From assembly GCA_965219455.1 (NCBI GenBank), contig OZ244744.1, positions 1,856,001-1,920,000 of the forward strand: a stretch of DNA of 64,000 nt. The letters run 5' to 3'. A model generated the notes under the pieces. The model did no database searches, was not told the DNA's origin, and saw only the letters and a program-made list of their open reading frames with translations. Made by a program: the position numbers and the translations under genes. Shown here piece by piece: positions 43,901-64,000 of this stretch (its first letter is position 1; the number at the start of each line of letters is the position of its first letter). This stretch comes from Candidatus Latescibacterota bacterium (lineage in GTDB: Bacteria; Latescibacterota; UBA2968; GCA-2709665).

Positions 43901-44247
43901 GCCGAGTCGAGGGCTCTATCCGTATCGTCGCTGGAAAAGTGGTGTTGGTGCGCCCACTTGTTGCGCCAATCGCGCAGTTCAGAGACAAGGCTACGCTCGG
44001 TGTGCCCGAGCGTGTACTTGAAGACATCGTTCCAAATGGCCCACATCAACTTTAGCAGCGCGGCAGCGTCCCACCCGTCGACAGGTTTGCCCTTGAGCAT
44101 CGGGTCATCGGGGAAATTGTGGAAGCCGTATTCATCCAATCGCTTTGCTTTAATTGCATTCTTGACTTCGCGATCGACGAATGGACCCAGCCCCGCCTTC
44201 AGTAGATCGAGCGCCTTTTCGACGCGTTCACGGTTGGTTACGGCCAT
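40921..44247 (-). CDS. Swt1-like HEPN + DUF499 AAA+ ATPase
   Basis: RNKWAH (RxxxxH), EFAADL, QTNFGGGKTH (Walker A), VLIDE, YPIHPE, FQRTRGVLR. Confidence 0.9.
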   Translation of the reverse strand: MAVTNRERVEKALDLLKAGLGPFVDREVKNAIKAKRLDEYGFHNFPDDPMLKGKPVDGWDAAALLKLMWAIWNDVFKYTLGHTERSLVSELRDWRNKWAHQHHFSSDDTDRALDSAERLLTAVSASQADEVNRMKMELRRLVMDEQVRGEKRRVVGALIESASAGALKPWREVVMPHADVATGGYQQAEFAADLWQVHLGEGSDEYRDPREFFRRTYLTESLRRLLEGAARRLAGKGSDPVVQLQTNFGGGKTHSMLALYHLFSGIAPGKLEGMDEVLAGAAVDTPSAVRRVVLVGNRISPGNPVEKPDGTVVRTLWGELAYQLGGRDAFERVRADDEQATNPGDALRELFNEYGPCVVLIDEWVSYARQLHDEGDLPGGSFETQFTFAQALTESAKLTGNCLLVISLPASDTSGSSSSHTEADDAEVGGIRGRSALERLSNVLGRVDSPWRPASAEESFEIVRRRLFEPLGGTDAFKQRDLTVQAFAELYRSQQVEFPAECRTMDYQRRVQAAYPIHPEIFDRLYTDWSSLARFQRTRGVLRLMASVIHSLWERGDRNPMILPSTIPIDDQRVQNELTRYLPENWTPVIEKDVDGPGALPLRIDAEAPNLGKLSAARRVARTVYLGSAPTSAAAHRGIDDARVKLGCVMPGETPAIFGDALRRLAAAATYLYQDGARVWYATQPTVTKLAEDRAEQLRGQPDEVAAELEKRLKTDLRAAGDFERIHPLPRSGADVPDDLDARLVVLSAEQPYWKEPDNAAQVAAKEILEMRGNTPRLYRNTLVFLAVDRVRWQDLDEALRRYLAWESILEDRVELNLDPHQARQAENQMNVANDTVTARLPEAYQWLLAPEQSNPQSALSWNAIRLTASGGLAERASRRLRSDEMLISSLGATILRKHLDDVPLWRGNHVEVRQLVQDFGQFLYLPRLAGPDVLTRAIQEGVGLLSWKLDSFAFAESYNEGDNRYIGLRAPGSVTVSPESRALVVKPNVAGVQIEREKPREPGEEIPGDPKEGIRREDTTPPLPEPPKPKARRYHGAATLDAQRVGRDASQIADEVIAHLSGIVGADVKVTLEIHAEIPHGAPENVVRTVTENSQTLKFETHGFEES

Positions 44248-44740: not shown

Positions 44741-45973
44741 CTATTCCGCCGCCCAGATAACGAGCTGTAATTCGCTGTCGTCGATCAAACTGTATTTGGG
44801 TAATCGTCCCGAGAGTCCATCGCTCTCGTTGAGAATGATCGGGACTCCATCGCCGCGCCGGTCTATAAAGTGGCTCCTTCCCAGGCCCGTTGGCGCACGA
44901 CAACGCATCAACAGGTAAACAATGAGTTTGTTCCTGCTGGCTTGCCGAAGGTGCAGGCTGTCGGAAGACAGCGTACCCACCAGACCGCCTGGCACATAGA
45001 GCTCAAGGCGATCGCGAAACAGGCGCAGGCGAATCCGGGAACCAGCGATAGAGTAATCGCGGTGTGCAACAGCATTGACGAGTGCCTCGAACATGGCCCG
45101 CTCACTAAACTGCGGACGGTCGGCCCGGGCCGTCGTCTTGCTCGCTCCTACGAGCATATTCCGTCGGATGAAATGCATTGCTTCCTCTACCTGCTCGTCG
45201 AGTGGCCCACCGATGTCGCGGGCCTCGCTTTGAGAGTTGACATCAGCGCGTTCACCCGCGTAACTGACGGCTTGTATGTACGCGTGGGGAAGCCATTGCT
45301 GCGGATTGCGCGTACATAGCAGCACGGCGGCGAGCGTTAGACGTGGAACTTCGTAATCGTCGTCGGCCACAAGGCCAAGCTTGCTTGCGAAGATTTCATT
45401 GACGCCTTCCTCAGCTGAGTCTTCTTGCAGAAAGCGGCGCGTCAACGAATAATCCAAATTACCGGTATTGGTTCGCGGTACAAGGGACTCGTCAAAGCGG
45501 ATCACGGGAGTCTGGCTGCGGTCCTGGAAGAGCCGGGCGAGTGCTTCCGGCGTCATTTCGCGCTTCGAACCGCCAATTCTGCGTTCGTATCCGCCGGCAC
45601 TCCGGTGGACAAACAAGCTGCGGTCAACGTCGATTCGGACCACCGGAACAAGCGTGCCCGTGGCATTTGGTAACTCGATCTTGCGGGTCGCCATGTCGAG
45701 CGGGGGAGTCACCGTGTCGTTGCAAATCTCGCACACCCAGCGCTCGACCGCATCAAGGTGTTCCAGAGGGATACCCACGACATCCCGGGTCGTGTCGTCG
45801 ACCCCCAGTACAAGAGTTCCGCCGCGATTGTTGGCAAAGGCCGCGAGTTCGTCACAGAGTTCGTTGCGATGCGGGTTGGAAACGCGGCCGCCCGACAGCA
45901 CGACCCGCTTGAATTCCATGGTCGAGTCCTCTCCGAGGCTGATACGGCGTGCCAGATTCGTGTCCGTCATCAC
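44741..45973 (-). CDS. AlbA_2 (Schlafen-like) domain + RecG-C/HATPase-like ATP-binding protein
   Basis: GEDSTMEFKR, AAFANNRGG, LGVDD, EALVNAVAHRDY. Confidence 0.85.
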   Translation of the reverse strand: MMTDTNLARRISLGEDSTMEFKRVVLSGGRVSNPHRNELCDELAAFANNRGGTLVLGVDDTTRDVVGIPLEHLDAVERWVCEICNDTVTPPLDMATRKIELPNATGTLVPVVRIDVDRSLFVHRSAGGYERRIGGSKREMTPEALARLFQDRSQTPVIRFDESLVPRTNTGNLDYSLTRRFLQEDSAEEGVNEIFASKLGLVADDDYEVPRLTLAAVLLCTRNPQQWLPHAYIQAVSYAGERADVNSQSEARDIGGPLDEQVEEAMHFIRRNMLVGASKTTARADRPQFSERAMFEALVNAVAHRDYSIAGSRIRLRLFRDRLELYVPGGLVGTLSSDSLHLRQASRNKLIVYLLMRCRAPTGLGRSHFIDRRGDGVPIILNESDGLSGRLPKYSLIDDSELQLVIWAAE

Positions 45974-46845
45974 GTCTTCTCCTTGACCAGAATGAGGTGA
46001 CGAGGCAGATCCCCGCCCGGCACAATTTCCACAGGGGCCCGTGTCAGCGTCGACTCGTCTGCGCCCTGTGACGACATGCCCGCCCGAATTCTCGCCAAAT
46101 CTTCAGACGTTATCGTTCCGTTGTCTCGGATCCAGAGCCAATCCGGCCAGCCACCGTCAACCGGTTCGAAACGTACCCAGTCGTAACTTTCCAACTCGTC
46201 CAAAGGTGGGCCTGTGTGCGCTTGATCTATGATATCTCGAATTGACCCTCGAATCAGCGATATCAGGTGCGTGCGTCCCTCAGGGCAGTCAAATAGGCAA
46301 CGCCATGGCAATGCGGCGCACGATGCATGAATCGAATTGAAGTCTCTGTGTCCACGGTTCGAGATCGCTTCGCGAATGATCCAGCTTGGCACCAGCGTGC
46401 AACCCAGTTGACCTTTGTCGGCGCACTGACAGCAGTGCCAATAGGGAAATGTATCGTCAAGGTCCGCATGGTTATACAGAAGATACAGCGGGATGGCGCC
46501 TACACTTCCAGAGAACTCTTCAAGGATGTCTATCTGAAAGGGGCCCGACGATTTCACCCTGGCGTTTAGGTGTTCATACCTGTTTGATGGATACAGCTTT
46601 TTGGCTTGCACTGCAAACGCTAACGCTCGATTGCTGCCAGCGTAAATCAGGATCCACAGATCGGTACCTACTACCGATTCCTGTGCCTTAGTGCATTGAA
46701 ACAGCCTCGCATTATCCTTCATCGAACGTGTGAAATCCAGAGCGAGTAGATCGGTCAGCGTCTCCTCGCCAAGCCGGACTTTCAGGTCACGTGACAGTTT
46801 TAGCCTTTCCCAAGTGTCGGCGGCAATTTTTTCAGAAGGAGTCAT
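45970..46845 (-). CDS. DUF6615-like putative PD-(D/E)XK nuclease
   Basis: GEETLTD, ESVVGTD, AVQAKKL, YLLYN; start MTPSEK at 46845. Confidence 0.65.
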   Translation of the reverse strand: MTPSEKIAADTWERLKLSRDLKVRLGEETLTDLLALDFTRSMKDNARLFQCTKAQESVVGTDLWILIYAGSNRALAFAVQAKKLYPSNRYEHLNARVKSSGPFQIDILEEFSGSVGAIPLYLLYNHADLDDTFPYWHCCQCADKGQLGCTLVPSWIIREAISNRGHRDFNSIHASCAALPWRCLFDCPEGRTHLISLIRGSIRDIIDQAHTGPPLDELESYDWVRFEPVDGGWPDWLWIRDNGTITSEDLARIRAGMSSQGADESTLTRAPVEIVPGGDLPRHLILVKEKT

Positions 46846-46864
46846 TACGTAGTCCGTCCGATTA

Positions 46865-47467
46865 TTAAAACAGCCGCCGCAGCCATTTGATGAATTTTGT
46901 GCTGAGTGCTCCATCCACGTGCAAGTCACGTGCGCCGATAGCGGCGCCCATCAGCCTGGGGTTCTCCCTTGCTGCCAGCCAAGCGTGGATCCTGGCTCGC
47001 TGTATCTTTTTCTCAGTAAACTTACGATCCGCCTCTGGAATGCAGTCAATGTAACGCCGGGCTCGTGGCCAAATTGGATCATCGTCTGGAACCATTTCCG
47101 CAACGAAGTCTTCAAGTTCGCCTGATGATGAATTGTCGGGCATCAACCAGATGCCAACTCGAGGGGATCCATTAATGATGGTACCTTCTGCGCCGGGGTA
47201 GTCAGGCACCTCGATGTCTTCCTCTCGAAGCCGGTTGGCCACAGAGCTCCAGCGAGCATTTACGTCTTCGTTCGCGTCTGCGACAATGCCGAGAGCCCTG
47301 CGACCGGGAACCCGCAATTCCAGGCCGATTTCCCCGAGAAGGACATCAATTCCTTCCTTATCGGAAATGTAGAACTTCGGCATCTTTTCTAAGCGGTCAG
47401 CCAGATGCCGGACGACACGCTTGTCATCCAGCCCTTCCACGAGTAGAACACGATCATCACCCGACAT
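46865..47467 (-). CDS. DUF3226 (TOPRIM-like) protein
   Basis: LLVEGLDD, IVADAN, IWLMPDN..GELEDF. Confidence 0.8.
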   Translation of the reverse strand: MSGDDRVLLVEGLDDKRVVRHLADRLEKMPKFYISDKEGIDVLLGEIGLELRVPGRRALGIVADANEDVNARWSSVANRLREEDIEVPDYPGAEGTIINGSPRVGIWLMPDNSSSGELEDFVAEMVPDDDPIWPRARRYIDCIPEADRKFTEKKIQRARIHAWLAARENPRLMGAAIGARDLHVDGALSTKFIKWLRRLF

Positions 47468-47471
47468 TTAG

Positions 47472-48650
47472 CTACCTCACCTCTACACCAACAGGTTGCT
47501 TCGCTAGTTCCCTGATATTACGCTCCGAATATTCGACGGCTCGGAGACCTCCATCTTCGCGTTCGAGACGCACGAGCGCCCCTTCGATACCGTCACAGTC
47601 ATCAATGGCTTGCGCAAAGCCACGAACGCAATCGTAGCTGTGCGTCGTGGCCAATACCTGCACGTTATTCTCGTGCGCCGTCATAAGAACCATCCGCCAG
47701 AACTCCCTTTGGACGGAATGATGAATACCGTTTTCGGCTTCATCGATGAGCAGAAAACCGTCGCGGCTGTTTGCCAGCGCCACGGCAGTGGCGGCCAGGT
47801 GCAGTGCCCCATCGCCCAGACTTTGCAAGGGGACTGGACGAGCCTGGCCCCGGAGCTTTGCGACCACTCGCTCAACATGTTCCTTGTCAAATGGTTCGTC
47901 GTTGCGAATCACGGCCACGCGCTCCAGGTCGCTCCCGAAAATCAGTCTCAGGGCCCGTATCGCTCGGTCCTCATCATCAGTCAGCGCAATGGCATTCCAG
48001 AAACGTACCATTTCTTCGTTGCTCAACACACCCGGTCCCAATGGTTGACATCCTATTGGGGACGACCACTTAGCTCCGACCAATAGGTCCCATGAGAAAA
48101 GGAACGCGCCAGCGCTATGGCGTTCTACGGTTCTGGCCGCCGCCGATCCCTGGATGGGGAGAAACCATGGCAGCAATTGTCCAGCGCCTTGAAATACGAC
48201 TTTGAATGCCTGACGATAGCCGTGTGCAAAATGGCCAGAGAGTGATTGCTTGAGTTGAGAAACCTGTTGGTCGTCCAGAGGCTCCTCCTCAATCCTGAGT
48301 TGATCCTCGCAGATATTGGGCCCGATCGAGATGCAGGCATTCCTCGACACATTCCGTCCATGGAACAGGGCCGCAAAGTCAGGTAGAAATCTTCTCTGCC
48401 GATTGGGATCATCGCAGATAGCGAGAGCCCGCTCTTGGCGGCTCTCCAGCAAGCCGGACAACACGCCATAGTTCCCGCGGGCTGCGTAGACCCGGACGGC
48501 ATCCAGAACGGTCGTCTTACCGACACCATTCTTTCCCGCCAGCAGCGTCACGCGACCCAACTTCCCTATCGTAAGTGACGCGATACCTCGAAATCCGGTT
48601 ATCGACAGATCCGGAAGATGAAGCCGGTTTTCATGGCGTTCTTCAGACAT
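47472..48650 (-). CDS. ABC/AAA_21-type ATPase
   Basis: GKNGVGKTT, LGDG signature, LLIDEAENGIH, ATTHS. Confidence 0.88.
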   Translation of the reverse strand: MSEERHENRLHLPDLSITGFRGIASLTIGKLGRVTLLAGKNGVGKTTVLDAVRVYAARGNYGVLSGLLESRQERALAICDDPNRQRRFLPDFAALFHGRNVSRNACISIGPNICEDQLRIEEEPLDDQQVSQLKQSLSGHFAHGYRQAFKVVFQGAGQLLPWFLPIQGSAAARTVERHSAGAFLFSWDLLVGAKWSSPIGCQPLGPGVLSNEEMVRFWNAIALTDDEDRAIRALRLIFGSDLERVAVIRNDEPFDKEHVERVVAKLRGQARPVPLQSLGDGALHLAATAVALANSRDGFLLIDEAENGIHHSVQREFWRMVLMTAHENNVQVLATTHSYDCVRGFAQAIDDCDGIEGALVRLEREDGGLRAVEYSERNIRELAKQPVGVEVR

Positions 48651-48773: not shown

Positions 48774-48808
48774 GAGGCATGCGGGCGAGACGCCCGCGCT
48801 CCCAGGAT
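48774..48808 (+). repeat. REP element (GAGGCAT-GCGGGC-GAGAC-GCCCGC-GCTCCCAGGAT), intergenic
   Basis: Matches the minus strand of 56694..56728 over 35 nt apart from one loop change and a compensatory stem pair. Confidence 0.8.
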
Positions 48809-50184: not shown

Positions 50185-51270
50185 CTAACGGTGATTTTCA
50201 ACAGATTCCGTGATTGGCGGCTCGAGCATGGACCGATTCAATTCGCCGACCGAGACCTGCAGCAGTTCAGCGGCCCTAGCCACGGGGATAGCTCCCTCAG
50301 CCATGGCGCGGTAACACAGCCGCTCGAAACGCTGCGGTACCTCTATGGGCATCGCATAAGGCTCTTCATACGGAGGCCGCCGCCAGCCCTGACGAGAGAA
50401 CTCCCCGAACAACACCTTGAAAAGAGACAAGCTGATAATGCCGAGATCCTTAAATCGATAGGTTAGAGCTTGAACACTTACCCCGAATAGTTGCTTTAGT
50501 GCAAAGAGTTCCCTCCATCCGATGGACGTTCGGCGCTTCCCAACGGCGGCCCACAGCGCTTCGGCGGGCATCAGGAACGCCCCGCCAAAACGGTAGGCGG
50601 CTTTCTCATCGTCTATATTTGCTGCGACGTCAAGGACTAGATGGCCGAGTTCATGCGCCATTGTCAAGCGTTGCCGCTCTCCCCATTCCTTATCGTTTAC
50701 GACAAGGACCGGAACCTGACGCTTTCCGGGGCGACGAACCCGCGCCATAAGGCCGTCGATATTTCCAAGATCAATTGCAAGGACCTTAATTCCATGTTCT
50801 TCGACCAACTCTACAAGATCAGGGATCGGGTCAAACCCCAAGCCCCAATACAACCTAAGATTGTTTGCGGCACGTTCCGCTTCAGAGGGATCGCTGACGA
50901 CAGGATACGGCGCGGCGCGGGGTTTGTCCCAGTTTACGCTCGTCAGATGGAGAAACTCCTCTACTTCAAGGTAGCGTTCCAGCAAGTGAATTACTTTCGC
51001 TTCGACCTGCGCCTCCTCGCGTCGACCCGTAATCTTCTTCTTCCGAAATTCGACGGACTCTAATGCGATTTCCTGGTCTCCGTTCAAGTAGTCCACGGGC
51101 ACTGATAGGGCGTTGGCCAGCGCTGTGAGGACGTCTGGGCTTGGCGTCGAGGCGCCACGCTCGTACTTGCCGATCGCCTGTGCCGTCACCCGACTTACAA
51201 TGCGTGCCTCAAGACCACGGAGAGAGAGGCCTGCAGCGGTCCGTGCAATCTTCAGTTTTCGCCCTACCAT
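50185..51270 (-). CDS. XRE-family HTH fused to ImmA/IrrE zinc metallopeptidase, divergent from CBASS
   Basis: N-terminal HTH (AIGKYERG), HELGH, E..A..FGGAFLMP. Confidence 0.9.
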   Translation of the reverse strand: MVGRKLKIARTAAGLSLRGLEARIVSRVTAQAIGKYERGASTPSPDVLTALANALSVPVDYLNGDQEIALESVEFRKKKITGRREEAQVEAKVIHLLERYLEVEEFLHLTSVNWDKPRAAPYPVVSDPSEAERAANNLRLYWGLGFDPIPDLVELVEEHGIKVLAIDLGNIDGLMARVRRPGKRQVPVLVVNDKEWGERQRLTMAHELGHLVLDVAANIDDEKAAYRFGGAFLMPAEALWAAVGKRRTSIGWRELFALKQLFGVSVQALTYRFKDLGIISLSLFKVLFGEFSRQGWRRPPYEEPYAMPIEVPQRFERLCYRAMAEGAIPVARAAELLQVSVGELNRSMLEPPITESVENHR

Positions 51271-51551: not shown

Positions 51552-52799
51552 ATGAACCCCAAGGCAAATTCAATCCATCTCACCGAGCCATTGGATATCC
51601 TATTGGCCGATGTGGCAATTCGCGTCCAACTCAGCCGGTCCGACTACGATAGGGCCGTTGGCAGATACAATACCATAAACGAATGGATTGAGCGCGAGGA
51701 CAGTGCGCTCAAGGATAAAGTTCATTTGTTCTATCCGCAAGGATCAATGGCCGTCGGCGCAACAATCGCATCGAAACTCCAGACCGATGAATTCGACATT
51801 GACATTGTGGCACAACTCAATTTGCCCTCGCAAATATCGCCCAATATCCCGTTAGATCTCCTGTTCGAAGCGATAAAAGGAAAATCGGGCTCCCGTTACT
51901 ACGAGATGACAAAGAGAAGAACTCGATGCGTTACCGTTGATTACAGCGACGACATGCACATCGATGTTACACCATTAATTCGCAGACCGGGAACCCCTGA
52001 GCGTGAGAGCTGGCTCTTCCACGATCGGCCGGAAGAACCGGCAGTGCCGAGCAGGAAGCTTATCGCCAATCCGTATGGCTTTGCAGAGTGGTTTAACACC
52101 TATACACCTGCAGACCAGGATTTCGCCGATGTGTTCGAAAGACGTGCGGCCGATTTTGAGCAGTCGATACTGGCGGAAAGGGCAGATAGCGAACCTGTCC
52201 AGCCACAAGAACCGCCATTCAGAAAGTCGAAGGCGGTGATCGTTCTTCAACTCTTAAAGCGTTGGCGCAACGTACAATACGATGCGCGCCCGGGGCGACG
52301 ACCGCCTTCGATACTGATTGCGAAGTTGGTAGCCGATGCGGCTAATCATACCAAAAGCCTGTCGGAGGAGCTGCTCTTTCAGGCGAAGCACATACTTTAT
52401 GAGTTCCAACGTTGGCAAGACGGTGGGCAAAGTATCCGCATCGTAAACCCCGTGTGCGATAAGGATGTCTTGACTGATCGGTGGCCGGAAACTTTGAAAG
52501 ACCAAAACGTCTTCATTCGCGATCTCGAACATCTGGTTAAACAGATTGAGGTATTGGTCAAGGGAGTTGACCTTGGCAAAATGAGGGAGGTTATGGTGGG
52601 ACTGTTCGGCGAAACGCCAACGATGGATGCATTCCGGGCATTCAGTGAGCGGGTGGGCGATCGGATTCGAACGGGTGAGAGCCGACACCTGCCTGGGACC
52701 GGCCGGTTAGTCGTTCCAGTAAGCCTTTCGGATGCGACACACCGATACTCCCGAAAAACCCAAAGGCATACCTTTTATGGCGAAGAGGAGCCCATTTAA
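51552..52799 (+). CDS. CBASS cGAS/DncV-like nucleotidyltransferase (CD-NTase)
   Basis: QGS..GATI, DEFDIDIV, HIDVTP, NPYGFAEWF, QLLKRWRN, C-terminal HTFYG tail. Confidence 0.9.
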   Translation: MNPKANSIHLTEPLDILLADVAIRVQLSRSDYDRAVGRYNTINEWIEREDSALKDKVHLFYPQGSMAVGATIASKLQTDEFDIDIVAQLNLPSQISPNIPLDLLFEAIKGKSGSRYYEMTKRRTRCVTVDYSDDMHIDVTPLIRRPGTPERESWLFHDRPEEPAVPSRKLIANPYGFAEWFNTYTPADQDFADVFERRAADFEQSILAERADSEPVQPQEPPFRKSKAVIVLQLLKRWRNVQYDARPGRRPPSILIAKLVADAANHTKSLSEELLFQAKHILYEFQRWQDGGQSIRIVNPVCDKDVLTDRWPETLKDQNVFIRDLEHLVKQIEVLVKGVDLGKMREVMVGLFGETPTMDAFRAFSERVGDRIRTGESRHLPGTGRLVVPVSLSDATHRYSRKTQRHTFYGEEEPI

Positions 52800-53252
52800 A
52801 TGGCGCTGTCGATTTGGCAACAAGCCCAAGACATGCGGCGATCATGGCCGGATTTTCGGGTACTCAAACGAGGCCATTGGAAAATATGCTGGGAAGGACG
52901 CCTCACACCATTCGAACAAGCTTATATTGTTCAGGTCTGCCTCCGTCGTCAACGAAAAAGTAAGGATGGACCTCTCAAAACGCCGGGAATTCCGTGCGTG
53001 ACCGTAGTTGAGCCGCTATTGCGCCGGCGTGACGATAATCCCCGCGAAAACATCCCGCACAAATTTCACAATCAAGAATGCCCTGAGATGCCCTTCCTCT
53101 GCCTTTATTATCCAGATGGTCGTGAATGGACCCCTCGACAATCAGTCGCCCATACAATCGTTCCCTGGACGATAGATTGGCTGGCCTGTTACGAGGGCTG
53201 GCTTGCAACCGGCAAATGGATGGGTGGTGGTCGCCATCCCGAAGGTAATTAG
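52800..53252 (+). CDS. CBASS-associated stand-alone E2-like protein
   Basis: WEGRLTP, IPH, LCLYYP, IVPW..DWL..YEGWLATGKW.GGG.H; abuts the CD-NTase stop. Confidence 0.8.
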   Translation: MALSIWQQAQDMRRSWPDFRVLKRGHWKICWEGRLTPFEQAYIVQVCLRRQRKSKDGPLKTPGIPCVTVVEPLLRRRDDNPRENIPHKFHNQECPEMPFLCLYYPDGREWTPRQSVAHTIVPWTIDWLACYEGWLATGKWMGGGRHPEGN

Positions 53253-53260
53253 ATCCAATA

Positions 53261-54322
53261 ATGTCAAATATCAACGCGGAATCACCCGAAAAAAGATCAT
53301 CTGGCACGCTTGAGCACCGTCGGCTCCGACTTTCATGGCCGAAAGACAGGGAGTTTCGCATTCTTGCCATTGACGGGGGCGGTATTCGTGGAATCTTCCC
53401 CGCTACATTCCTGGCAGGACTTGAGGAACGCTATCTCGGCGGGGACTCAATCGCCGGATATTTCGACCTGGTCGCAGGAACCTCGACTGGTGGTATTATT
53501 GCCCTCGGGCTCGCCGCTGGACTTACAGCGGCCGACCTTCGAGACCTGTATGTTGAACGCGGATGTGAAATATTCCCTCCAATTCCAAACAACCCTGCTG
53601 GCTGGTTAGAACGCGCCCGTAGATACGTGGGCTGTCTCTTCAAATACCGCTACGACCGCGAAGCACTCATGCGAATTCTGAGCGACACTTTCGGAAGCCG
53701 AAAATTCGGTGAGGCGCAAACACGCCTTTGTATACCATCCTTCGACGGCCGATACGGTGAAGTCTACATATTCAAAACACCCCATCACCCCGATTTTAAA
53801 AATGACTCTGCTGAGTTAATGACGAAAGTTGCCGCAGCGACATCGGCCGCGCCTACATTCTTTCGACCATTAGAAGACCGCGGCTATGCGTTTGTTGACG
53901 GAGGGGTCTGGGCAAACAACCCGATTATGGTAGCGTTGGTTGACGCTTTATCGTGCTTTTCTGTGAGACGTGAGCAAATTCGCATTTTGAGTTTGGGCTG
54001 CGGGGATGACCAATATTTGGTCGGAAAATCGAAGATTAAAGGTGGGCTATGGGCTTGGCATGATATCATATATGCCGCCATGCGTCTCCAGTCTCTCAAC
54101 GCTCTTGGTCAGGCTGGACTTCTGATTGGCAGAGATAAGATTATCAGAGTTGATACGCCTATGCCTGCCAAGAAAATCCGTCTCGACGATTGGAGTGGTG
54201 CGGTGACCGTGCTGCCAGATGCTGCAAGAGCAGCCCTCGGCAAGTTTGGAGAGACAGTGGCATCGTCATTTCTGATGGAGCCCGCGGTCCCGTATCGACC
54301 AGTTGCACACGTGATCTCTTAA
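53261..54322 (+). CDS. CBASS patatin-like phospholipase effector
   Basis: DGGGIRG, GTSTG, SAAPTFF, DGGVWANNP all intact. Confidence 0.9.
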   Translation: MSNINAESPEKRSSGTLEHRRLRLSWPKDREFRILAIDGGGIRGIFPATFLAGLEERYLGGDSIAGYFDLVAGTSTGGIIALGLAAGLTAADLRDLYVERGCEIFPPIPNNPAGWLERARRYVGCLFKYRYDREALMRILSDTFGSRKFGEAQTRLCIPSFDGRYGEVYIFKTPHHPDFKNDSAELMTKVAAATSAAPTFFRPLEDRGYAFVDGGVWANNPIMVALVDALSCFSVRREQIRILSLGCGDDQYLVGKSKIKGGLWAWHDIIYAAMRLQSLNALGQAGLLIGRDKIIRVDTPMPAKKIRLDDWSGAVTVLPDAARAALGKFGETVASSFLMEPAVPYRPVAHVIS

Positions 54323-54351: not shown

Positions 54352-57300
54352 TCAAGAAGCATTTCTTGATGCTTGATCTCCAAAAATCCTCAACTGTTGA
54401 CCTTGCGTGAGTTCCCTTGACAATCGCGCAATTTCCGGCCAGCTTTGTACGAGGCCATTGTAGGAGCGGGCTTCATCGGCGCGGTTCTTGCGCTCGCAGA
54501 CAGTGTAGAGCCGATATGCTAATTCACGGGCTGTCTCCGCGAGACCTCCGAGTTGCCGAACCAGCGTTGCGGCGGCGGATTCGCCGCCAGATTCAAGAGC
54601 GTGGACCAGGTAGTGGACCGCCTCCCACACGGTTAACCGTGCGTCGCTGGTTGGATCCCAATCGCCAGCCATCTCATTAGGACGTAGCAGCCGTACCTTG
54701 CCCCCACTGGAGGCGAGAATACCGGCTTCAACGATGCCGTCAATGCTGGTATTTTTCGCCTTGGAAAGGGTCTCCGCCACGCCGTACTCGCCCTCGCCAA
54801 AGCCCTGCTGCTCGAACCACGCCAGTGCCCACCGCGTGTCGGCGTCGAATTCGCCCTCCTGCTCGGCAAGGACCTCGTCGAGTGTCTGATTAATTAACGC
54901 CAAGGCGTCGCCTACGGATACGGGATTGCCCTGTGCGTCGAGTACTCTTGCGTATCGGGTGAACACAGCCATACCGGGTCCGATAGCGGCCTGCGCGAGA
55001 TCGACCGGCGCAATGTTGCCGGATTGGAGTGCGGCTAGAGCACCGGGAAGTTCATTTCTCAAAGCGGCGACGAACTCGCGTCGGGTGGCTAGCGACGCGC
55101 TCTCGGGACGCTTACGGCAGACCAAGACGATGCTGGACGCGAGCGCATTCGTGCCCATTCCGACCATCCGCCGACCCAACTCGGTACGCATCGGCCAGGT
55201 GCCGGTTACGGAGAAGCCTGACTTAATTACCGCGTCCAGGAAAGTCTCCCAGCCGGTGCTGGAAGTCCCGGCTTCACCTTTGGTCTCGGACTGCTTGAAA
55301 GCGTAGTAGATGGTGACTGGAAAGGCCGGACGCGACCGCTCGGCAATGCGGCGCATTGCTTCCGTCATCCCGGCGAGATAAAATTTCTCTGCCTCTTCCT
55401 TGTTCCCATGCCGGTATGGGGTAGCGACCAATTCTTCGGCTTTCGGTACAGCGAGCGTGGCGAACAGGTCGGGATAGATTGAGCGTACCGCGCGGCGCAA
55501 CCAGACGTAAAAGAAGTCGGAGAGATCGGCGTAACCAACATTGTCGTAATAGGGTGGGTCAGTGGAAAAAACTCTTGCAAGCGCAACGCCATGCGATTGG
55601 GCGTCGATTTGTGCCGCGCTACCGGGAACTGTTGGCGCGACTGAAGACAGACCGGAAGTGATCGACACAATGCCACCGTCAAAGTTGCCACTTGAATCTG
55701 AGAGTGGATTGCTTTCCCCGAAATCCCACACCATCGGGATGGCTTGTCTACCGAATGTATTGCGGGCATGCTCACGGAGTGTTGCCCAAGCGCACACCGT
55801 TGAGTTCCGATCTGAAACTTTATCCACGGCGAATGCCAAATACACACCCACCGCCTCCGCGTAAGCCGTTGCGCGGTCACCCCCGTCACGCAGGGGAATA
55901 TCATTATCCGGGGCTGCGGGTGTCATCACCCTTCTAGAATTTTCAGGGAGCGACGCGTCCCCGTAATCGCGTTTAACGCGCTCCATTGCCCTCGCGACGA
56001 GGTCGGAGAAGGTGGTCAGAGCTACGAGTTGGCGGGGGGTAAATAGATCGCGCCATTTTTTCATACCGTACTGCTGAACGCGAAAACCCAGTGCCCGTTC
56101 AGGAAGGTCAGTTTCAGGGGTGTTCTCCGGCGCAGCGCTCAAGGCTATTGCTTCGTGATCTTCAGTCGGTGCGATGTAAACCCGGCCGCGGTCGCCCTCC
56201 GCGACTATCGCCATCAGTTTTTCACCCATTCGACCTTGCTTGGCTTCGGTCCTCAGATAATCGAATGGCATTGGAGTCCCTGACATCAGACAAAGAAAAG
56301 AGCTACCGCTTCCTCCTGATTTGGTGCCCCGCTTTGTCGATTCCGCATCGTTTGGAATCCCCACATTAACCGTAAATCGATATCCCTGTCCTTCGATTGC
56401 CGGTTCGACATACGCCTCCTTCCCCATCTTCGTCGACAACATGAAGGTCGTAGCTAGCGGAACATCCACATCGGCGAATGCCGGGTTTGGACTCTTCACG
56501 GTGCGCGCCCACAGCCACGCGATCACTGTCAACTTCCGGCCCTCATACTGTTTGAGGTCAGGCCGTTCCCGGACCATCTCCGCAGTGACTTCGATCTTGG
56601 GATAGAGATGCCCGATGCGCTTCTCAGCCTCCTCGCGCATCCACCGGCCGTAATAGCGTACGTCCTCTGCGAGGCCCTGAGCGCCAGACCACAATCCTGG
56701 GAGCGCGGACGTCCCGTCCGCATGCCTCTTTCTTACTCCGTCAAGCTCCGTCCCGTCCGCATGATCCTCTGGAACTCCCGCAAGTTCCGCTCCTTCCACA
56801 TTCCTTGCCGCGCTGCTCCAGGGCCATTCGTTTGCCTTCTCGGCAAGTCCCGCTTTCACGGGATTCTGCTCAATGTAGTCTACCACAGTTGATAGATGAT
56901 TTTCATCGCGGATATAACGGTCGAAGTAGTCCTCTTCCCAGACCTGGCCGCTCCGGCCAAGTATTTTGTTAACTTGCTTGGCTGTAAACGATTTCCACGA
57001 ATGAACGACGGCCTCAAGTGGAAAGCCGGGAGTCGTTTCGATCAGCGCATGCACGTGATTGGGCATGATGACCCACGACAGCAAGCGGTAGCGTACGCCG
57101 TCAAAGTGAAGTAGGGCGTCTTCGACTTGAACCGCTATCCGCTCATCTCTTAGCCAGCAGGCTCCATGTCCCTGTCCAGCGTATCGTTCAATTCTCTCAC
57201 GCAACTCCGCGCATCTGGGATCGCTCGTGGCCTCCCTGCCTTTGAGCGCCAATTCGCTCTTCCATGCGGCAATGACATCTGCCGGGACTGAATCAGCAAG

Positions 57301-58014
57301 GCGAAACGTGATGGACTGAATGATGTCAGGTTGATCCAGATGGGGAAGATATCCGCGGCTGTGCCAGGCCTTGTGCGGGCGGGACGCCCGCGCTCCCAGC
57401 AAGGGCTTTTTCGAATGGGATGTACCTGTGCCGAGATACTTGGCCCGGGCTTCCGGGTTGACGGGTGGCCTGCCGGCGAATCTGGGCGGTATTTCGATCA
57501 TGGCCTTATTGATGAGCACAGCCACAGGGTTGAGGTCGCTGGCATGGGCTTCGAGCCCCAGCCGCTGGGCTTCCAGCGGCAGTGCGCCGCCCCCGGCGAA
57601 GGGGTCGTGAAAAGCCGGAAGCTTGTCCGGGTTGAACAGCTCGGTGGCGCGCGGATGTTCCGTATTTTCGGCGCAGGTACGACGCCAGGACTTGCGGATT
57701 TCCGCTCGCGCCTTTTCAAGCACCTGCTCGTTTGTTGTGTTCTTCCAAATCACCAAATCCTTGATGATGTCGAATAGGCGCTCACGTTCCTCTTTCTGAT
57801 CTGCTTGAGTGGGAAACTCCTCAGGCCACGCTGACGGATCGTCCACCATCTGAGCGAATATAACAGCCCGCGCTGCCGCCAGCGGGCGCCGCGCCCACCA
57901 GAGGTGGAGGGTACTGGGGTGCCCATGGCGGATCGACTTTTCACGAGCCGACGCGGCATTAATCGCGTCAAGGGGAAGGGCGACTTCGATGAGTTTTTTT
58001 CGGTGGGTATTCAT
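54352..58014 (-). CDS. DUF1156 adenine-specific DNA methyltransferase with in-frame RAYT insertion
   Basis: [17 protein letters not shown] (motif I), TDPPYYDN (motif IV), WPMRTE; internal Y1 transposase domain. Confidence 0.9.
56697..56721 (-). repeat. REP hairpin GCGGAC-GGGAC-GTCCGC-GCTCCCAG
   Basis: Perfect 6-bp stem, tail pointing out of the RAYT cassette. Confidence 0.85.
57375..57399 (+). repeat. REP hairpin GCGGGC-GGGAC-GCCCGC-GCTCCCAG
   Basis: Perfect 6-bp stem, inverted relative to the 56697 copy. Confidence 0.85.
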
Positions 58015-58496
58015 TTAGCGCTCGAACTCCGCAGAAGAGAAATATTCAAAGGGGTTCCGCATCGGATGAGTTTGATTTCGTATTCTTTCCTCCGAAACGA
58101 GATTCGAGACTTTCTGAGCTTATCCCTTTGCGTAATATGCAAACGGCCTCCATAGGCCCCAACCGGAAGGAAATGCGTCTTGTGTTCGTCCGGAATCCGA
58201 GCTTCGGCGACGCCGGATCCAGCCTGTAGCTGGGTTGCCATTTCTGTTGCATCCGGGCTGCCACGTTTTAATTCCAGCGGTACAACCCAGTTGCCCCCAC
58301 CATTGCAGTCGCAACTGATGAACAGAAAATCGCAATGTGTCTTATCCTTCAGGTCGAAATAAGGGTGATCCAAATCCATAACCAGATGCGGCGACGGGGC
58401 GTTTTTCAACGGAACCTTGCAACCCTCTTTCGAGCATCTCTTAACGATGGTCCCTTCAGGAAGTCCATTTTTCAGCTGTTCGACTAAGCCACACAT
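58011..58496 (-). CDS. Small putative PD-(D/E)XK nuclease, partner of upstream ATPase
   Basis: CDFLF...VPLELKRG pattern; coupled to both neighbours. Confidence 0.6.
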
Positions 58497-60037
58497 TACT
58501 CGGTACTACCTGCAATACGGTTACCGATCGTCGCCCAATCATTGTAGAGTTGTCGGCCAACTTCGCTGAAATCACTCTCAAGCCCACCTGCATCAGGATC
58601 GAATCGAATTTCTTCGACGACCGATCCCTTCGGGCGGCGCTTCTGCTTGAACAACCATGCCCCCACCTGCTCGGGACGAAGGGCAAATTCGCCGTGGGGC
58701 ATCTCCTTTCGACGGGACTCGGGAAGTTCGGAGCGTCGCACGATGTTGGCGAGTTCCTCCAAAACCCACTCGCTGTGCGTCGTGACGATTACATTGACGC
58801 CCGCCTTAACAAGCGCGGCGATCTGACGGGTAAATTCGACCTGCATGGCAGGGTGCAGGTGTGACTCGGGTTCTTCGATAATGAGCGTGCAGCCGGGGCT
58901 GACCAGATGGCGAAGAAACATCACTACCGGTGCGATTTCCGATACCATGGAAGAGGCATTCATCAACGGCATCGGATGTTTCCATCCCGATGGCTGGTAG
59001 GTGAAGTGCGGGTAGCTGATCAACTCCGATCTTTCGACCTGAATCGATCCGCCGAGAATCAGATCTTCAATTCGCGCACCCAGATGTTTCCTGGACGTGC
59101 TTTGACGAATTGCCGCGCTGGGCAATACGAGCAAGTTTTGCAGAAAATCACCCAAAACACCCGACAGCATTGGAGTTTCTTCATTGGGACGCAGACCGGC
59201 AGTTGTAGCGTTCTGGATCAACGCACTCACCACCACCTGATGGCTATTCATCACGCCGGTTCGATCGGCGGGGAGATAGAATGCCGCGCGATAAAGGGAA
59301 CCTACAAGGTGCGGAAGAGCGAGTCCAAGCAAATGATTGATTGGCCCCAAGGCTTGTCGATACGAATCCTGGCCCATTTGATCAGCTCTCAAGAACGTAT
59401 TCTTCAGGCGGTCGTAGTACTCAACGAACTCTTTCCTATCGTCGAGTTTAACCCTCAGTTGTTCCACATTAGGCATCGCCGTCACGAATTCTGGTGCATT
59501 GGACTTCAGAATCAGTTCGTGTTCAAACGATGCCGAATCCCTTGAAGTAGATTTCCGTAATACAATCCGCGCACATCGCCTGTTCCCTTTCCGGATAAGT
59601 GCGCTGGCACTGTCGATCCCAAAGCACCTTTCGATTTCACTGTGGAGTTGATCGTTCTGTAACTCAAACATTGAGCAAATTGCCTTGACAATAGGGATGG
59701 GAAGAACAGCTTCTTTTTCGCTCCGGATATCTCCTATCCCGTTCGTCACTTGCTTCAGAAATTCGTTAAGCGCGTTGAGAGTTTCCCTGTCTACAAAGCT
59801 TGGACCGAGATTAAGAAGCCTCTCATAGTTCAAGAAGAACCGCGAAGTGGTCGATCTACCCGTAAAATACACATGCAGCGCATAGATCAACGTTGCCAGA
59901 TAAGATTTCCCAGTATTGCTCGGTCCAATGAATACCGTCAACGGGCGCAGATCGATTTTGGCATTGACGATCGGTCCGAAATCAGCGACTTCGAGTTCAA
60001 GCGAGTCTCGTATGGTTGAATCTTCCATAACTTCCAT
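58496..60037 (-). CDS. ABC/AAA_15/21-type ATPase
   Basis: GPSNTGKS, YLPADR, ASSMV signature, IIEEPESHLHP, TTHS. Confidence 0.88.
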   Translation of the reverse strand: MEVMEDSTIRDSLELEVADFGPIVNAKIDLRPLTVFIGPSNTGKSYLATLIYALHVYFTGRSTTSRFFLNYERLLNLGPSFVDRETLNALNEFLKQVTNGIGDIRSEKEAVLPIPIVKAICSMFELQNDQLHSEIERCFGIDSASALIRKGNRRCARIVLRKSTSRDSASFEHELILKSNAPEFVTAMPNVEQLRVKLDDRKEFVEYYDRLKNTFLRADQMGQDSYRQALGPINHLLGLALPHLVGSLYRAAFYLPADRTGVMNSHQVVVSALIQNATTAGLRPNEETPMLSGVLGDFLQNLLVLPSAAIRQSTSRKHLGARIEDLILGGSIQVERSELISYPHFTYQPSGWKHPMPLMNASSMVSEIAPVVMFLRHLVSPGCTLIIEEPESHLHPAMQVEFTRQIAALVKAGVNVIVTTHSEWVLEELANIVRRSELPESRRKEMPHGEFALRPEQVGAWLFKQKRRPKGSVVEEIRFDPDAGGLESDFSEVGRQLYNDWATIGNRIAGSTE

Positions 60038-60792: not shown

Positions 60793-61347
60793 TCATTGGC
60801 ACGCTGCCAGAAGTCTCGAATTTGCGGTTAACACTTCTATGCCTCCCGTCCTGAAGTCGCCGTCGTTCGTAATCAGTTTCCAGCCATTGTGACGACAGGT
60901 TTCAGCCAGCAATCCGTCATTGAAATCAGTCACTCCCGCTGTAAAATCTGCCAGCACCTGCTTGATATTGGCCGTGGCAAACGGATGATCGTGGCGCACA
61001 CAGAGCTTGAGCATGGACGTTGCAAAGGATGCCGCACCTTTGCCGACCCCGCTGAAGGCCGCCGATTTGCGAAATGTCTTGAAATCGGGATACCGGGTCA
61101 GGTGTAGAACCTTCCATTCAATGCGACAATAGGTATTCAAGTACTCACTTAAGACCAAAGCGTCCATGATCAACCGCGAACCTACGGATCGAATGGACTT
61201 TAATCCGTTACTATATTTCTGGGTGAACGTGCTCCTGTACCCCGATGGCGGTGGATACAAATAGAGCCAAACGTTCGCATCAAGCAAGAACGTCTCGCCT
61301 CTGCTAAACGGATATGCAGCCAAGTCATACGCCTTATTCTTCTTCAT
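60793..61347 (-). CDS. PIN-domain (VapC-like) ribonuclease
   Basis: LLDANVW, LSEYLN, DFND, LITNDGDF acidic tetrad. Confidence 0.85.
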   Translation of the reverse strand: MKKNKAYDLAAYPFSRGETFLLDANVWLYLYPPPSGYRSTFTQKYSNGLKSIRSVGSRLIMDALVLSEYLNTYCRIEWKVLHLTRYPDFKTFRKSAAFSGVGKGAASFATSMLKLCVRHDHPFATANIKQVLADFTAGVTDFNDGLLAETCRHNGWKLITNDGDFRTGGIEVLTANSRLLAACQ

Positions 61348-61693
61348 CGCCTAGTTCCTCACGCCACACGCGATCGAAATCATCGGGGGTTTTAAAGTAC
61401 ACTTTTGCATTTTCAATTACACGTTCCAGCATCTCCCGGTCGTCATCTGCCAAATCGCGAAACGAGAGCAACGCACGGATGCTTTCCTCGGGTAACTCGC
61501 CGTAAAGCTGACCCACTGCCGCGTTGAGAAAAGCCGAGATGAGAATCTCTATCCGTTCGAAGGATAGAACCACCGGCGACTCCGCCTTCAAGAGTGGAGC
61601 AATCTTGTCGTACAGACGTTGGCCGTCGCTGGTAGATACGCACAGGGGACCACCAATGATGTCAAATACTCGAACTGTAATTTCTCGCGTCAT
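61334..61693 (-). CDS. STAS-like (DUF4325) protein
   Basis: G..LYDKI...VVLSFERIEILISAFLNAAVGQLY; start MTREIT at 61693. Confidence 0.85.
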   Translation of the reverse strand: MTREITVRVFDIIGGPLCVSTSDGQRLYDKIAPLLKAESPVVLSFERIEILISAFLNAAVGQLYGELPEESIRALLSFRDLADDDREMLERVIENAKVYFKTPDDFDRVWREELGDEEE

Positions 61694-61712
61694 GCTTGTC
61701 CTCTTTCCAAAT

Positions 61713-62585
61713 TCAATACGGACTGTCGGCTTTTTTTTCACTCTCCAGGAAATATATACTCTCATCAGCAGTGTTGATTTCAATGGTTACGGCAGTCCCG
61801 GGAAAGTCAACCGCCATATTCGCGAAAGTTTCCGTGCCACGGCTTAGTTCATAAAATGCGAAACGGGAGGCAATCTGAATCTTACCGTCATTCAGACGAG
61901 CGAATTTCTGTAGAAACTCAAGGCCTAACCCACCGGGATACGGCCCACTTTTCGTGGTGTGATATGGCTCAAGTGCCCATTTGAGGGCTGGAAGCGAGTT
62001 GATACGAGGAGTATTGAAATACCGACGAACATTCTCTCGAATTCCGATACCGGCATCTGCAACCGTAAAATCAAGCCGATTCTCTTGCGGGAAAAACTGG
62101 CCACAGACGAAGACACCAAGATTTGATTCGGAATGGAATACGGCATTCTGATACACTTCAAAAACCTTCTTCTTGAAGATCCTGCTTGCGCCATCGGACA
62201 TTCTGGGGATGCCTCTTCCGGTAAGTTGCCAATGGATATACTCTTCGAACTCACCCTCATCACTCAGGCGCAGCCGGCGAAACGGCATGGTTGTATTATT
62301 GTTGTCATCCAGTGATTTGTACCAATAATGAGTTAGGAACAGATTCTTACGAAGTATAGTCTCGACCGGACCCGGGATATCGACGATGCGAATGGTATTG
62401 AAACCGTCAGCGACCTTAGAAAGAATCGCGCCAAGTGGCGCCGCCATGTTGGCGTCGAAAAAATCCAACCTTGACATGTTGAGTTGCAGTTGATCCGAAT
62501 AGAGACCCTGAGCAGCTTTGGCGAGTTTGGCGAGCGTTTCCCACCCCTCACGTGTACTGTGCACGGTCGGAAGATAGTAGATCAT
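61713..62585 (-). CDS. STAS-like N-domain + GHKL (anti-sigma kinase-like) ATPase
   Basis: EVYQNAVFH (N box), DAGIGI (G1), TTK, GGLGL (G2), PGT. Confidence 0.85.
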   Translation of the reverse strand: MIYYLPTVHSTREGWETLAKLAKAAQGLYSDQLQLNMSRLDFFDANMAAPLGAILSKVADGFNTIRIVDIPGPVETILRKNLFLTHYWYKSLDDNNNTTMPFRRLRLSDEGEFEEYIHWQLTGRGIPRMSDGASRIFKKKVFEVYQNAVFHSESNLGVFVCGQFFPQENRLDFTVADAGIGIRENVRRYFNTPRINSLPALKWALEPYHTTKSGPYPGGLGLEFLQKFARLNDGKIQIASRFAFYELSRGTETFANMAVDFPGTAVTIEINTADESIYFLESEKKADSPY

Positions 62586-62973: not shown

Positions 62974-64000
62974 TCAGGTCGGCTTCCCAGCCCGTTCGAT
63001 CAAGTCATTCAGCTTGTAATTCACGCTTGTCACTGAGAAATCCGGTTCCCTTTGAAAAGGCCTACGCAGGTAGTGCACGCGATGCTCACCGCCATCCAGG
63101 AACTCGACGATGGCGAGGATGAAATCGTCCGGTTTGTTCAGCGCCGTAAGGATCTCATTCTTCGTCACCGTAATCGTATCTCCACCGGACTGGCGGCCCT
63201 TCACTTCGATGAAACGCAACTTTCCCGTACCGGGAACACGGCTCTCAATGTCATAACCGAGATGTTCGGTCTCCCGGTCGACGGGCTCGAATCCGAGGCC
63301 GCGTTCCACTTCCATGATGATGGCGCGAGCCTTTGCCGCCGACTTCTGGGTGTCCACGATGTGCCGTGGCGTGGAGGCTCCGGTCATGGCTGCCAGGAGT
63401 CCCATGGGTACGACGACAAGGCCGCCGACGATGGCGGGCGGCAGCGCTGAGATCCGCTCCTCCCGGTCGAGTTGGTTCGTGCGCTGATGGAGCCGCTCCT
63501 GCAGATCGTCTGCGCGCCGTTGGGCCTCGCGGGAGTTGAGCTTTGCCCCGGCCTTTCCTGCTTCCTCCTGGAGCTTGAGTTCCTCGGCGCGGTGGTCCCA
63601 ATACGCCATTTCCTTGGTCAGGCGCTCCTTAACCGCGGCACGGGTTTTCGCAACCAGAGCGAGGCGCCGGTCGCGAACCTCTCCAAGGTGTTCCGGCACG
63701 ATGTTGGCGATGGCCTCCTCCCGCGCCTGCTGCTCCAGCTTTCGGGTGATCCATCCGCACTCCGGGCGGTCAAGGATGTCGACCACTTTGGGTTCGTAAT
63801 CCGCCAGCGGCCGGTAGTCAAGGTACGGCGCGTAGTCGAGACGGCGTTTCACGCCGGCTGCATCGATCTCGACATAGAGCGTCCGGCGTGAGATGACACG
63901 ACCCTCGCCACTGGCCAAAACACTTCCGTCCTTTATCGCATGCTCCAGCGAGAAGATCACACGCGTTTCCAGGCCCGGGTCCCGCTCGTCCACGAGCACG
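62974..64000 (-). CDS. SNF2-family helicase with C-terminal DUF3883 (NOV-C) nuclease domain, C-terminal part
   Basis: APYLDYRP, RLTKEMAYWD, GYDIES...RFIEVKGR, VTKNE, EPDF typical of DUF499-system helicases. Confidence 0.88.
   Translation of the reverse strand, partial: VLVDERDPGLETRVIFSLEHAIKDGSVLASGEGRVISRRTLYVEIDAAGVKRRLDYAPYLDYRPLADYEPKVVDILDRPECGWITRKLEQQAREEAIANIVPEHLGEVRDRRLALVAKTRAAVKERLTKEMAYWDHRAEELKLQEEAGKAGAKLNSREAQRRADDLQERLHQRTNQLDREERISALPPAIVGGLVVVPMGLLAAMTGASTPRHIVDTQKSAAKARAIIMEVERGLGFEPVDRETEHLGYDIESRVPGTGKLRFIEVKGRQSGGDTITVTKNEILTALNKPDDFILAIVEFLDGGEHRVHYLRRPFQREPDFSVTSVNYKLNDLIERAGKPT

Follow-up and report, generated by a model that had tools for sequence, protein, structure and literature searches.

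REP-associated tyrosine transposases (RAYTs) have been described as extragenic genes in single copy, passed on for the most part vertically and serving populations of repetitive extragenic palindromes (REPs). The best comparison for the present work is the REPtron of Escherichia coli, in which the gene for TnpA-REP, an HUH/Tyr enzyme with a Y1 fold (PDB 4ER8), stands between two hairpin repeats that are inverted and share a conserved 5′ prefix (PMC3479197). Here we analyse a stretch of 64,000 nucleotides from a Candidatus Latescibacterota bacterium (the window; positions 1,856,001 to 1,920,000 of contig OZ244744.1), in which the same kind of enzyme and the same arrangement of repeats are found inside a protein-coding gene. 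A complete REP-RAYT-REP unit, translated in frame, makes up codons 189-441 of hmaB, the predicted methylase gene of an Hma defence locus. We consider it reasonably probable that this unit is a selfish REPtron cassette adapted to residence as a translated internal domain. In contrast to the E. coli unit, it is intragenic and lacks an evident start or stop codon of its own, it carries the prefix CCTGGGAnCG where the E. coli/Pseudomonas class has GTAG (PMC3479197), its genome holds 3 REPs instead of tens to hundreds, and units of its type are spread among alleles and host genes.

Other described elements share part of these properties. The TIRYTs or TIRtrons are RAYT-like genes with longer terminal inverted repeats (TIRs), comparable to the 26-30-nt inverted arms found here; TIRs overlapping the ends of open reading frames ('5′ov', '3′ov'), low repeat copy numbers and an occurrence in Acidobacteria and similar taxa have been reported (Di Nocera 2013, PMC3733652). 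However, these are stand-alone genes, a transposase nested in a host reading frame was not found in the accessible text of that article, and the shared TIR motif GGGGWSAS, as we understand this text, does not fit the prefix in the window. Palindromes that are tolerated as extra peptide are known from the RPEs of Rickettsia and from REPs in recB and other genes (partial texts of PMC3733652 and PMC3184786). The REP-only footprints described below are of that same kind, whereas the insert in the window is a whole autonomous unit including the transposase. Elements of the IS200/IS605 group have the Y1 HUH transposase fold and hairpin ends on single-stranded DNA in common with the cassette, which differs by the absence of tnpB, by arms that are inverted rather than on the same strand, and by a score of 26.1 bits against the IS200 transposase profile NF033573 (transpos_IS200), below the cut-off of 55. 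The original prediction for this locus held that RAYT fusions to other proteins are known in general, for which our literature searches provided no support; they yielded no paper on an in-frame RAYT, with subscription journals and supplements outside their scope. In-frame REP-like repeats in genes are already known; in-frame residence of a whole REP-RAYT unit is apparently undescribed.

The Hma system itself has been described, also as a DUF499-centred system related to bacteriophage exclusion (BREX) (PMC11232893; PMC12839542). The genes hmaA, hmaB and hmaC, with nested defence genes, are common to the published loci and the window, and other defence genes were reported between the hma genes in 66.5% of hma loci (PMC11232893). 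A transposase within HmaB is a feature of the present locus; no mention of it was found in the accessible parts of these two articles, and the word 'transposase' occurs 0 times in that of PMC12839542.

The cassette and its host gene

The open reading frame (ORF) at 54352-58014 on the minus strand encodes 1220 amino acids without an internal stop. It matches HmaB over its full length (PADLOC PDLC00660, 1521.8 bits; PDLC00661, 1434.6 bits), with the PDLC00660 match falling into two stretches, the second of which pairs aa 440-1207 with profile positions 210-962 of 967. Pfam detects DUF1156 (PF06634; aa 12-83, 114.9 bits), Y1_Tnp and MethyltransfD12 in this ORF, and its scan for intein or Hint domains was negative, as was to be expected from the earlier statement that intein signatures are absent. 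With the NCBIfam equivalog DUF1156_antiphage a score of 114.3 bits is obtained, under the cut-off of 1000, and HmaB here is a subfamily other than that equivalog. On these profile matches the protein is assigned as the putative DUF1156 N6-adenine methylase of an Hma (DUF499, BREX-related) defence locus.

The N-terminal part of the host (aa 1-188; 57451-58014, minus strand) contains DUF1156 and ends at PVNPE (aa 184-188; 57451-57465), and the C-terminal part (aa 442-1220; 54355-56691, minus strand) resumes at W442, with aa 442-452 encoded by 56659-56691. The interval, predicted as about 250 codons without a stop, measures 253 codons. Methylase motif I (DPFAGGG; aa 137-143, 57586-57606) and motif IV (DPPY; aa 819-822, 55549-55560) are indeed intact on either side, and both are invariant across alignments of 30 and 60 relatives.

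The RAYT core (aa 217-401; 56812-57366, minus strand) extends from WHSRGYLPH to WPWSS. The insert scores 88.5 bits against NCBIfam NF047646 REP_Tyr_transpos (cut-off 80; aa 308-400, covering profile positions 46-146 of 146 only) and 36.6 bits against Pfam Y1_Tnp (cut-off 23; aa 309-384). The full Y1/HUH domain that had been recognized from the letters of the sequence is confirmed by these scores, with the catalytic HUH motif at H320-V-H322 (codons 57049-57057) and the tyrosine, Y380, within DYIEQNP (56860-56880).

Inverted REP hairpins that are read as protein bracket this domain, as had been proposed. The arms of the cassette form a 26-nt inverted repeat (56697-56722 and 57374-57399) that is 92% complementary, each arm having a 7-bp stem and a 3-nt loop, and they differ from each other by a compensatory change from G:C to A:T. 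The left REP (57371-57400, minus strand) consists of the prefix CTGGGAGCG and the hairpin GCGGGCG-TCC-CGCCCGC and is read as LGARASRPH (aa 206-214). The right REP, with the hairpin GCGGACG-TCC-CGTCCGC, lies on the plus strand (56696-56725) and is translated on the minus strand, as aa 431-440. An extra right half-REP (HADGTELDG; 56737-56763, minus strand) was recognized from one direct and one inverted repeat. A segment further out (aa 193-204; 57403-57438, minus strand) is probably a decayed REP-like unit; it resembles the LGGSS..KSL loops of empty alleles, and in relatives, such as protein P0008, tandem 12-aa units form a gradation between intact and decayed REP. As read from the sequence, all six frames of the REP unit are free of stop codons, and the cassette lacks evident start and stop codons, so that it would be translated as an internal domain of HmaB.

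Of the features that characterize RAYTs, the insert shows the HUH motif and tyrosine in a Y1 fold, a family profile score above cut-off and flanking inverted REP hairpins. A 5′ GTAG tetranucleotide at the hairpin foot was not found, nor was a many-copy population of cognate REPs or REPINs: the 17-nt REP core has 3 copies in the window (0.23 expected from shuffles), and the whole genome (5.84 Mb, one contig) contains 3 copies of the cassette REP, namely the two arms and a solo REP in an intergenic gap of the island (48777-48806, minus strand).

An AlphaFold2 model of HmaB residues 1-1195, calculated with 60 sequences, is poor overall (pLDDT 66, pTM 0.36) and unreliable for the methylase core, which is below 50 near motifs I and IV; only the RAYT domain and linkers were taken from it. 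A pLDDT of 70-87 applies to the RAYT part (aa 227-406), while the REP-encoded linkers (192-226 and 407-448) remain below 50 and are predicted to be disordered. The top Foldseek match is 4er8_A (E 1e-5, TMt 0.63), followed by IS200/IS605 transposases, and 4er8_A is also the sole sequence match of the insert in the PDB (E 2e-8). The E. coli TnpA-REP protein is monomeric (PMC3479197), which would suit life as an inserted domain. The position of the cassette, further called site A, is the same as that of the published target-recognition insert of these methylases, which was placed after core strand 2 (PMC12839542): it lies just past the helix that follows methylase strand 2.

Support for the junctions

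Misassembly had been named as a possible reason for the unusual arrangement, and the sequencing data speak against it. In exact contigs of run X1, which may be the source sample, the right junction is bridged (56489-57072) and the left REP is covered into the host part (57374-57907); no listed contig piece spans a stretch of 18 nt at the highly repeated REP. The architecture of a cassette in hmaB was also found in 7 further genome loci. Another allele is the most likely source of a single low-depth joint, from 56531 to 57553 (depth 2, middle unknown). RNA run X18 contains a 597-nt contig that is 94% like 56799-57387 and stops short of the host flanks; it is a relative in an RNA library and no proof of transcription.

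Words of the left REP and RAYT start (57306-57453) were further encountered at a summed contig depth of 2×10^4 to 1×10^5 in three metagenome runs from different studies, and at a depth of 4-8×10^3 in an RNA library, continuing into many different flanks. These depths and the many flanks indicate that the REP family is abundant in those communities.

Conservation of the REPs as DNA

When REP sites were picked by the exact 9-nt prefix alone, in 187.5 kb of window and loci, 58 matches were obtained, 51 of them distinct. A perfect 7-bp stem follows at a fixed distance in 28 cases and a stem with one mismatch in 2; in locus L010, several further prefix matches form perfect hairpins in which the loop is 4 nt. 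Among the 28 perfect stems there are 8 sequences (GCGGGCG, GCGGACG, GAGGGCA, GCGGGCA, GCGGGCT, GCGGCCA, GCCGGCT and GCAGGCG), which means that a change on one side of the stem is matched on the other. The same REP is translated in different frames in different proteins, for example as GQDARAPR. The REPs are kept as DNA hairpins, not as peptide.

Recurrence in HmaB relatives and other proteins

Searching with the whole protein gave mostly HmaB relatives with Y1_Tnp, which come from many phyla and are 57-83% identical (among the best 120 of 8000 scored). The sample of relatives is biased to RAYT carriers, since the queries held a RAYT. The alignments reveal two in-frame insertion sites: site A, and a site B between RV.RD and PLRDGG. 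Among 139 full-length relatives, a RAYT is present at site A in 62 and at site B in 53 (3 have both), with 27 having it at neither site. In the filled forms, the translated REPs are LG(A/T)RASRP... at the beginning (left REP) and AG(G/E)TPALPG... at the end (right REP). Other alleles have REP doublets without a RAYT, in frame, at both sites, and decayed remnants of 42 aa also occur. At site B of the window hmaB (55879-55980, minus strand) a decayed REP-doublet footprint, 12 residues longer, was recognized by comparison with empty (31-aa segment), REP-doublet and RAYT-filled relatives.

In the phylum of the window, an HmaB-like match is present in 63 of 168 species genomes, and 10 cassettes occur in 9 hmaB genes of 8 genomes. 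The phylum has 36 RAYT-family matches, of which 11 are in open frames of 1203-1441 aa (10 of these being hmaB) and the remaining 25 in frames of 96-353 aa. All 8 site-A cassettes of the loci that were compared are on the host strand, and only that of L017 has a 1-nt frameshift; L012 has an additional cassette at site B, in the strand and frame of the host. The alignment with orthologues that had been recommended for defining the empty site gave empty loops of 24-60 nt. Gap lengths are multiples of 3, a property for which a test had been suggested, in 6 of 7 filled genes, and the ORF is intact in 6 of 7 distinct filled genes.

Several relatives display other insertions. The hmaB gene of L008, a metagenome-assembled genome of the Gemmatimonadales (3579-6390 and 9269-9298; open frame of 1343 aa), contains about nine further REPs of the same family, as singles and doublets, all in frame and outside sites A and B. 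In L050 (3570-3988), L057 (3606-4009) and protein P0027, site A is occupied by a non-RAYT insert of about 140 residues that is rich in Gly, Asp and Ser, which implies that the loop tolerates more than one kind of insert. Unlike the in-frame RAYT cassettes, unrelated insertions break hmaB out of frame in L015 (4338-5964) and L068 (4704-5595); judged from its translation, the one in L015 has a long transposase-like ORF in another frame. In protein P0193 (280 aa) an HmaA-like N-terminus runs directly into a REP and RAYT, and in P0222 a RAYT at the end is followed by an HmaB-like TGWET... segment. Judging from these two sequences, cassettes in frame may also exist in hmaA, and HmaB may have a third site.

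The RAYT lineage is not confined to HmaB. A search with the insert only, aimed at longer proteins, gave 921 matches, and an insert search of all libraries gave 20,725 representatives at E ≤ 0.001. Of the 145 usable sequences among the best 150 representatives, at least 32 are embedded in larger proteins. According to Pfam, the hosts include creatininase, metallophosphoesterase, MmeI-type enzymes, a ferredoxin-type protein, HAD hydrolase, PriA, a DinG-like helicase and WYL-WCX; precomputed domain lists add HsdM, MTTB, radical SAM and class II (FBA) aldolase. REP-coded peptides border the RAYT in these proteins as well, and the reading frame is kept, for which creatininase, metallophosphoesterase, MmeI-type enzymes, PriA, HAD, WYL-WCX, HsdM, FBA aldolase and MTTB are examples. 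Homologous recombination has no means of bringing a unit into unrelated genes, so that the likely origin is a transposition of the unit as a whole.

Selection on cassette and host

Ratios of nonsynonymous to synonymous substitution (dN/dS) were calculated by the Nei-Gojobori method with a custom script. For the RAYT core, dN/dS is 0.19-0.21 against the two hmaB copies of a congener, G057, and 0.089 against genomes G053 and G040; for the host segment it is 0.05-0.19 between cassette-bearing alleles. The HUH motif is kept in 62 of 62 inserts at site A and 52 of 53 at site B, the tyrosine in the same proportions, and overall 114 of 115 inserts have retained these residues. In view of the purifying selection on both partners and the conserved catalytic residues, neither half looks dead, and relaxed selection on the methylase half, which had been considered fatal to the proposal, is contradicted by the host values.

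These values bear on the view that the arrangement is a neutral accident, a dead gene or an assembly artefact, i.e. a single chance insertion in frame in a non-working gene. By chance, one insertion in 6 has the strand and frame of the host, the genome has only 3 REPs, and in the accessible text of PMC11232893 the role of HmaB in Hma defence is unproven. However, the ORF is intact here as in 6 of 7 distinct filled genes, dN/dS is low for the host and for the RAYT (0.09-0.21), the arrangement recurs in many phyla and exact contigs cover both junction sides. This explanation is largely refuted, and we regard it as extremely improbable.

An added effector has to be considered as well. The original prediction offered as one of its two readings a domesticated nuclease for hairpins in single-stranded DNA, joined to the DUF1156/DUF499 machine. 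As an effector, it would act against phage DNA. That the RAYT is physically fused to a DNA-binding methylase and has an intact HUH/Tyr site under purifying selection is in line with this. The locus already has NOV_C (HmaA) and HEPN (HmaC) nuclease domains, however, and an effector would not need REP ends that are conserved as DNA with compensatory changes. Furthermore, the presence of the RAYT is patchy and divided over two sites, and its relatives stand alone or in non-defence genes, so this reading is the less supported of the two and quite unlikely. The other reading, of a REP-RAYT unit that inserts harmlessly and in frame into a variable loop of restriction-modification genes, gains from the two sites, the patchiness, the REP-only footprints, the unrelated hosts and the purifying selection; the word 'harmlessly' is a deduction from selection.

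History of the cassette and of the host gene

On a FastTree phylogeny of the host core, from which the insert columns were removed, the RAYT state changes at least 23 times at site A and at least 21 times at site B, compared with shuffle means of 45.8 and 42.5 and a minimum of 34 for both. Sister pairs with support of 96-100 differ in RAYT state. In a tree of 261 RAYT sequences, in which many branches are weak, the HmaB inserts are intermingled with RAYTs that stand alone and with those of other hosts, and one site-B clade is nested among site-A inserts.

The divergence within the genus is informative about the cassette itself. Codons 205-380 of the window gene are 98.5-98.7% identical at the nucleotide level to both hmaB copies of G057 (7-8 differences in 528 nt), and codons 381-441 have G053 as their closest counterpart (88.5%), which makes the cassette a mosaic; hmaB is mosaic outside the cassette too. 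Against G057, the synonymous divergence (dS) of the cassette core is 0.117, that of the hmaB host parts 0.7-1.9 (58-84% nucleotide identity), and that of neighbouring island genes 0.10-0.37 (hmaA 0.209, AAA 0.097, HATPase 0.146). An explanation in which the cassette is younger than the host gene was dropped, as the island neighbours show equally low dS. From these neighbours it follows that the host parts of hmaB are unusually diverged and that the history of the cassette is decoupled from that of its host; the core appears to have stayed, or to have been re-copied, while alleles were exchanged around it.

G057 carries two tandem hmaB paralogues, G057a and G057b, that are near-identical over codons 154-474 only (6 differing codons), i.e. 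over the cassette and some 33 codons (about 100 nt) on each flank. Outside this tract identity is 89.5% on the N-terminal side and falls from 84% to 58% on the C-terminal side. The restriction of identity to the cassette and its flanks indicates a gene-conversion tract centred on the cassette. The paralogues (L116, 11396-14977 and 17130-19901) are separated by 2.2 kb within an island syntenic to that of the window, and their target-recognition regions are 58-60% identical in nucleotides while the cassettes are identical. A solo REP of the same family is present about 10 nt past the stop codon of copy a (L087, 5128-5157), which may be compared with the solo REP in the window.

Given this history, a mutualistic or domesticated module must be taken seriously, as the turnover of hmaB alleles has left the cassette so well preserved. 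The cassette would then serve the Hma locus, either as portable homology or as a nicking site for the exchange of hmaB alleles or target recognition, or else in the regulation of hmaB by REPs and RAYT. The core at island-level divergence between host parts that are replaced or hyper-diverged on both sides is compatible with such a role, as are recombination breakpoints at or in the cassette, the catalytic residues kept in nearly all inserts, the presence, in 5 genomes of the genus, of a second type of RAYT at one and the same position upstream of hmaA, and the many defence methylases among the hosts. It fits less well that 27 of the 139 relatives have no RAYT at all and close sisters differ in state, that footprints decay, that hmaB is also mosaic away from the cassette, and that the lineage resides in creatininase, HAD, PriA and aldolase genes, for which a benefit from shuffled alleles is not obvious. 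All in all, we find a benefit to the host rather unlikely as the primary explanation.

The Hma locus and its neighbours

All three hma genes of the window are on the minus strand. The 3′ part of hmaA (62974-64000; PADLOC HmaA 316.6 bits, Pfam NOV_C), encoding an SNF2 helicase with a NOV_C nuclease, continues past the window end, the complete gene encoding 1190 aa. The product of hmaC (40921-44247; PADLOC HmaC 1116 bits, Pfam) is a DUF499 ATPase with an N-terminal HEPN_Swt1 domain, i.e. a Swt1-like HEPN domain (118.9 bits).

According to PADLOC and Pfam, the locus (40921-64000) is interrupted by nested defence modules. Between hmaC and hmaB these are a gene for Schlafen-AlbA_2 with HATPase_c_4 (44741-45973), DUF6615 (45970-46929), PDC-M38 A/B (46865-48650), a fused HTH and M78 regulator that is CapH/CapP- or RmrA-like (50185-51270), and a cyclic oligonucleotide-based antiphage signalling system (CBASS) with cyclase (51552-52799), E2 (52800-53252) and patatin effector (53261-54322). 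Between hmaB and hmaA follow a PD-T4-4-like AAA_15/21 ATPase with a 161-aa partner (58011-60037), PIN (60793-61347) and DUF4325 with HATPase_c (61334-62585).

Directly upstream of hmaA and outside the window (1922864-1923598 of the contig; L005 1477-2211, minus strand) lies a stand-alone RAYT of the second type (YHRTHLPHFE, 244 aa), amid REPs of a second kind, with the GAGGGCA stem, of which the genome has about 17-20 copies. This RAYT shares 80% identity with site-B HmaB inserts of relatives and groups with them with a support of 95; in the 5 genomes of the genus a RAYT of this type is located 9-16 kb upstream of hmaB.

Residence in frame as a proposed way of life

A selfish cassette, the explanation that we prefer, would operate as follows. 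The REPtron settles, in frame, in a loop of HmaB that permits insertion, for which its stop-free ends, the lack of own start and stop codons, the flexible linkers and the independently folding enzyme would make it suited. The embedded RAYT would be active on its own REPs, for the sake of the unit. Arrival in non-homologous genes would occur by RAYT-dependent transposition, and only copies in frame in tolerant loops would survive. Once in hmaB, the cassette may persist and pass to other alleles by recombination, and its loss would leave REP footprints; imprecise loss would be penalized, as it would break the host gene.

Several observations weigh against this explanation. With 3 REPs in its own genome, the RAYT is not visibly spreading REPs here. 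A pair of filled and empty alleles with near-identical flanks was not found, the best flank identity being about 85%. The run data are Logan contigs and not reads; they contain no excision or empty allele, and no joint that skips exactly 56697-57399, but contigs are blind to rare variants such as a rare excision. The host tree is derived from a recombining gene, which makes the counts of state changes approximate, and the structural model is of little use for the methylase core. Moreover, long-term purifying selection and a cassette that is retained through hmaB allele swaps would fit a host-beneficial module equally well.

Returning to a selfish cassette, the resemblance to inteins and homing endonuclease genes is considerable: these, too, are in-frame selfish inserts at defined sites, with costly loss and patchy distribution, and flanks are co-converted upon copying to another allele, as in G057. 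Unlike inteins, the cassette has no Hint or splicing domain, and the insert stays in the mature protein. Unlike homing endonucleases, its HUH/Tyr nuclease would act on the hairpins of the element and not on the empty allele, and homing is a proposal here. It is conceivable, and we put this forward tentatively, that the RAYT lineage is a DNA-level counterpart of inteins that settles mainly in genes where breakage is punished (defence methylases, PriA, aldolase), that it reaches new alleles by homing-like conversion via RAYT nicking at REP hairpins, and that in Hma loci it also provides portable homology that drives the shuffling of methylase alleles.

For annotation, the finding matters since such proteins are variously named 'transposase' or 'DUF1156 protein'. 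It also reveals two places in a defence methylase where insertions are permitted, supplies natural fusions with an HUH domain as study material, and connects mobile hairpin elements with the fast turnover of defence-gene alleles in a way that can be tested. A lineage resident in frame within working genes, along with its hairpin ends, would represent a further lifestyle for bacterial mobile DNA, and it would give whole enzymatic domains a natural way into proteins.

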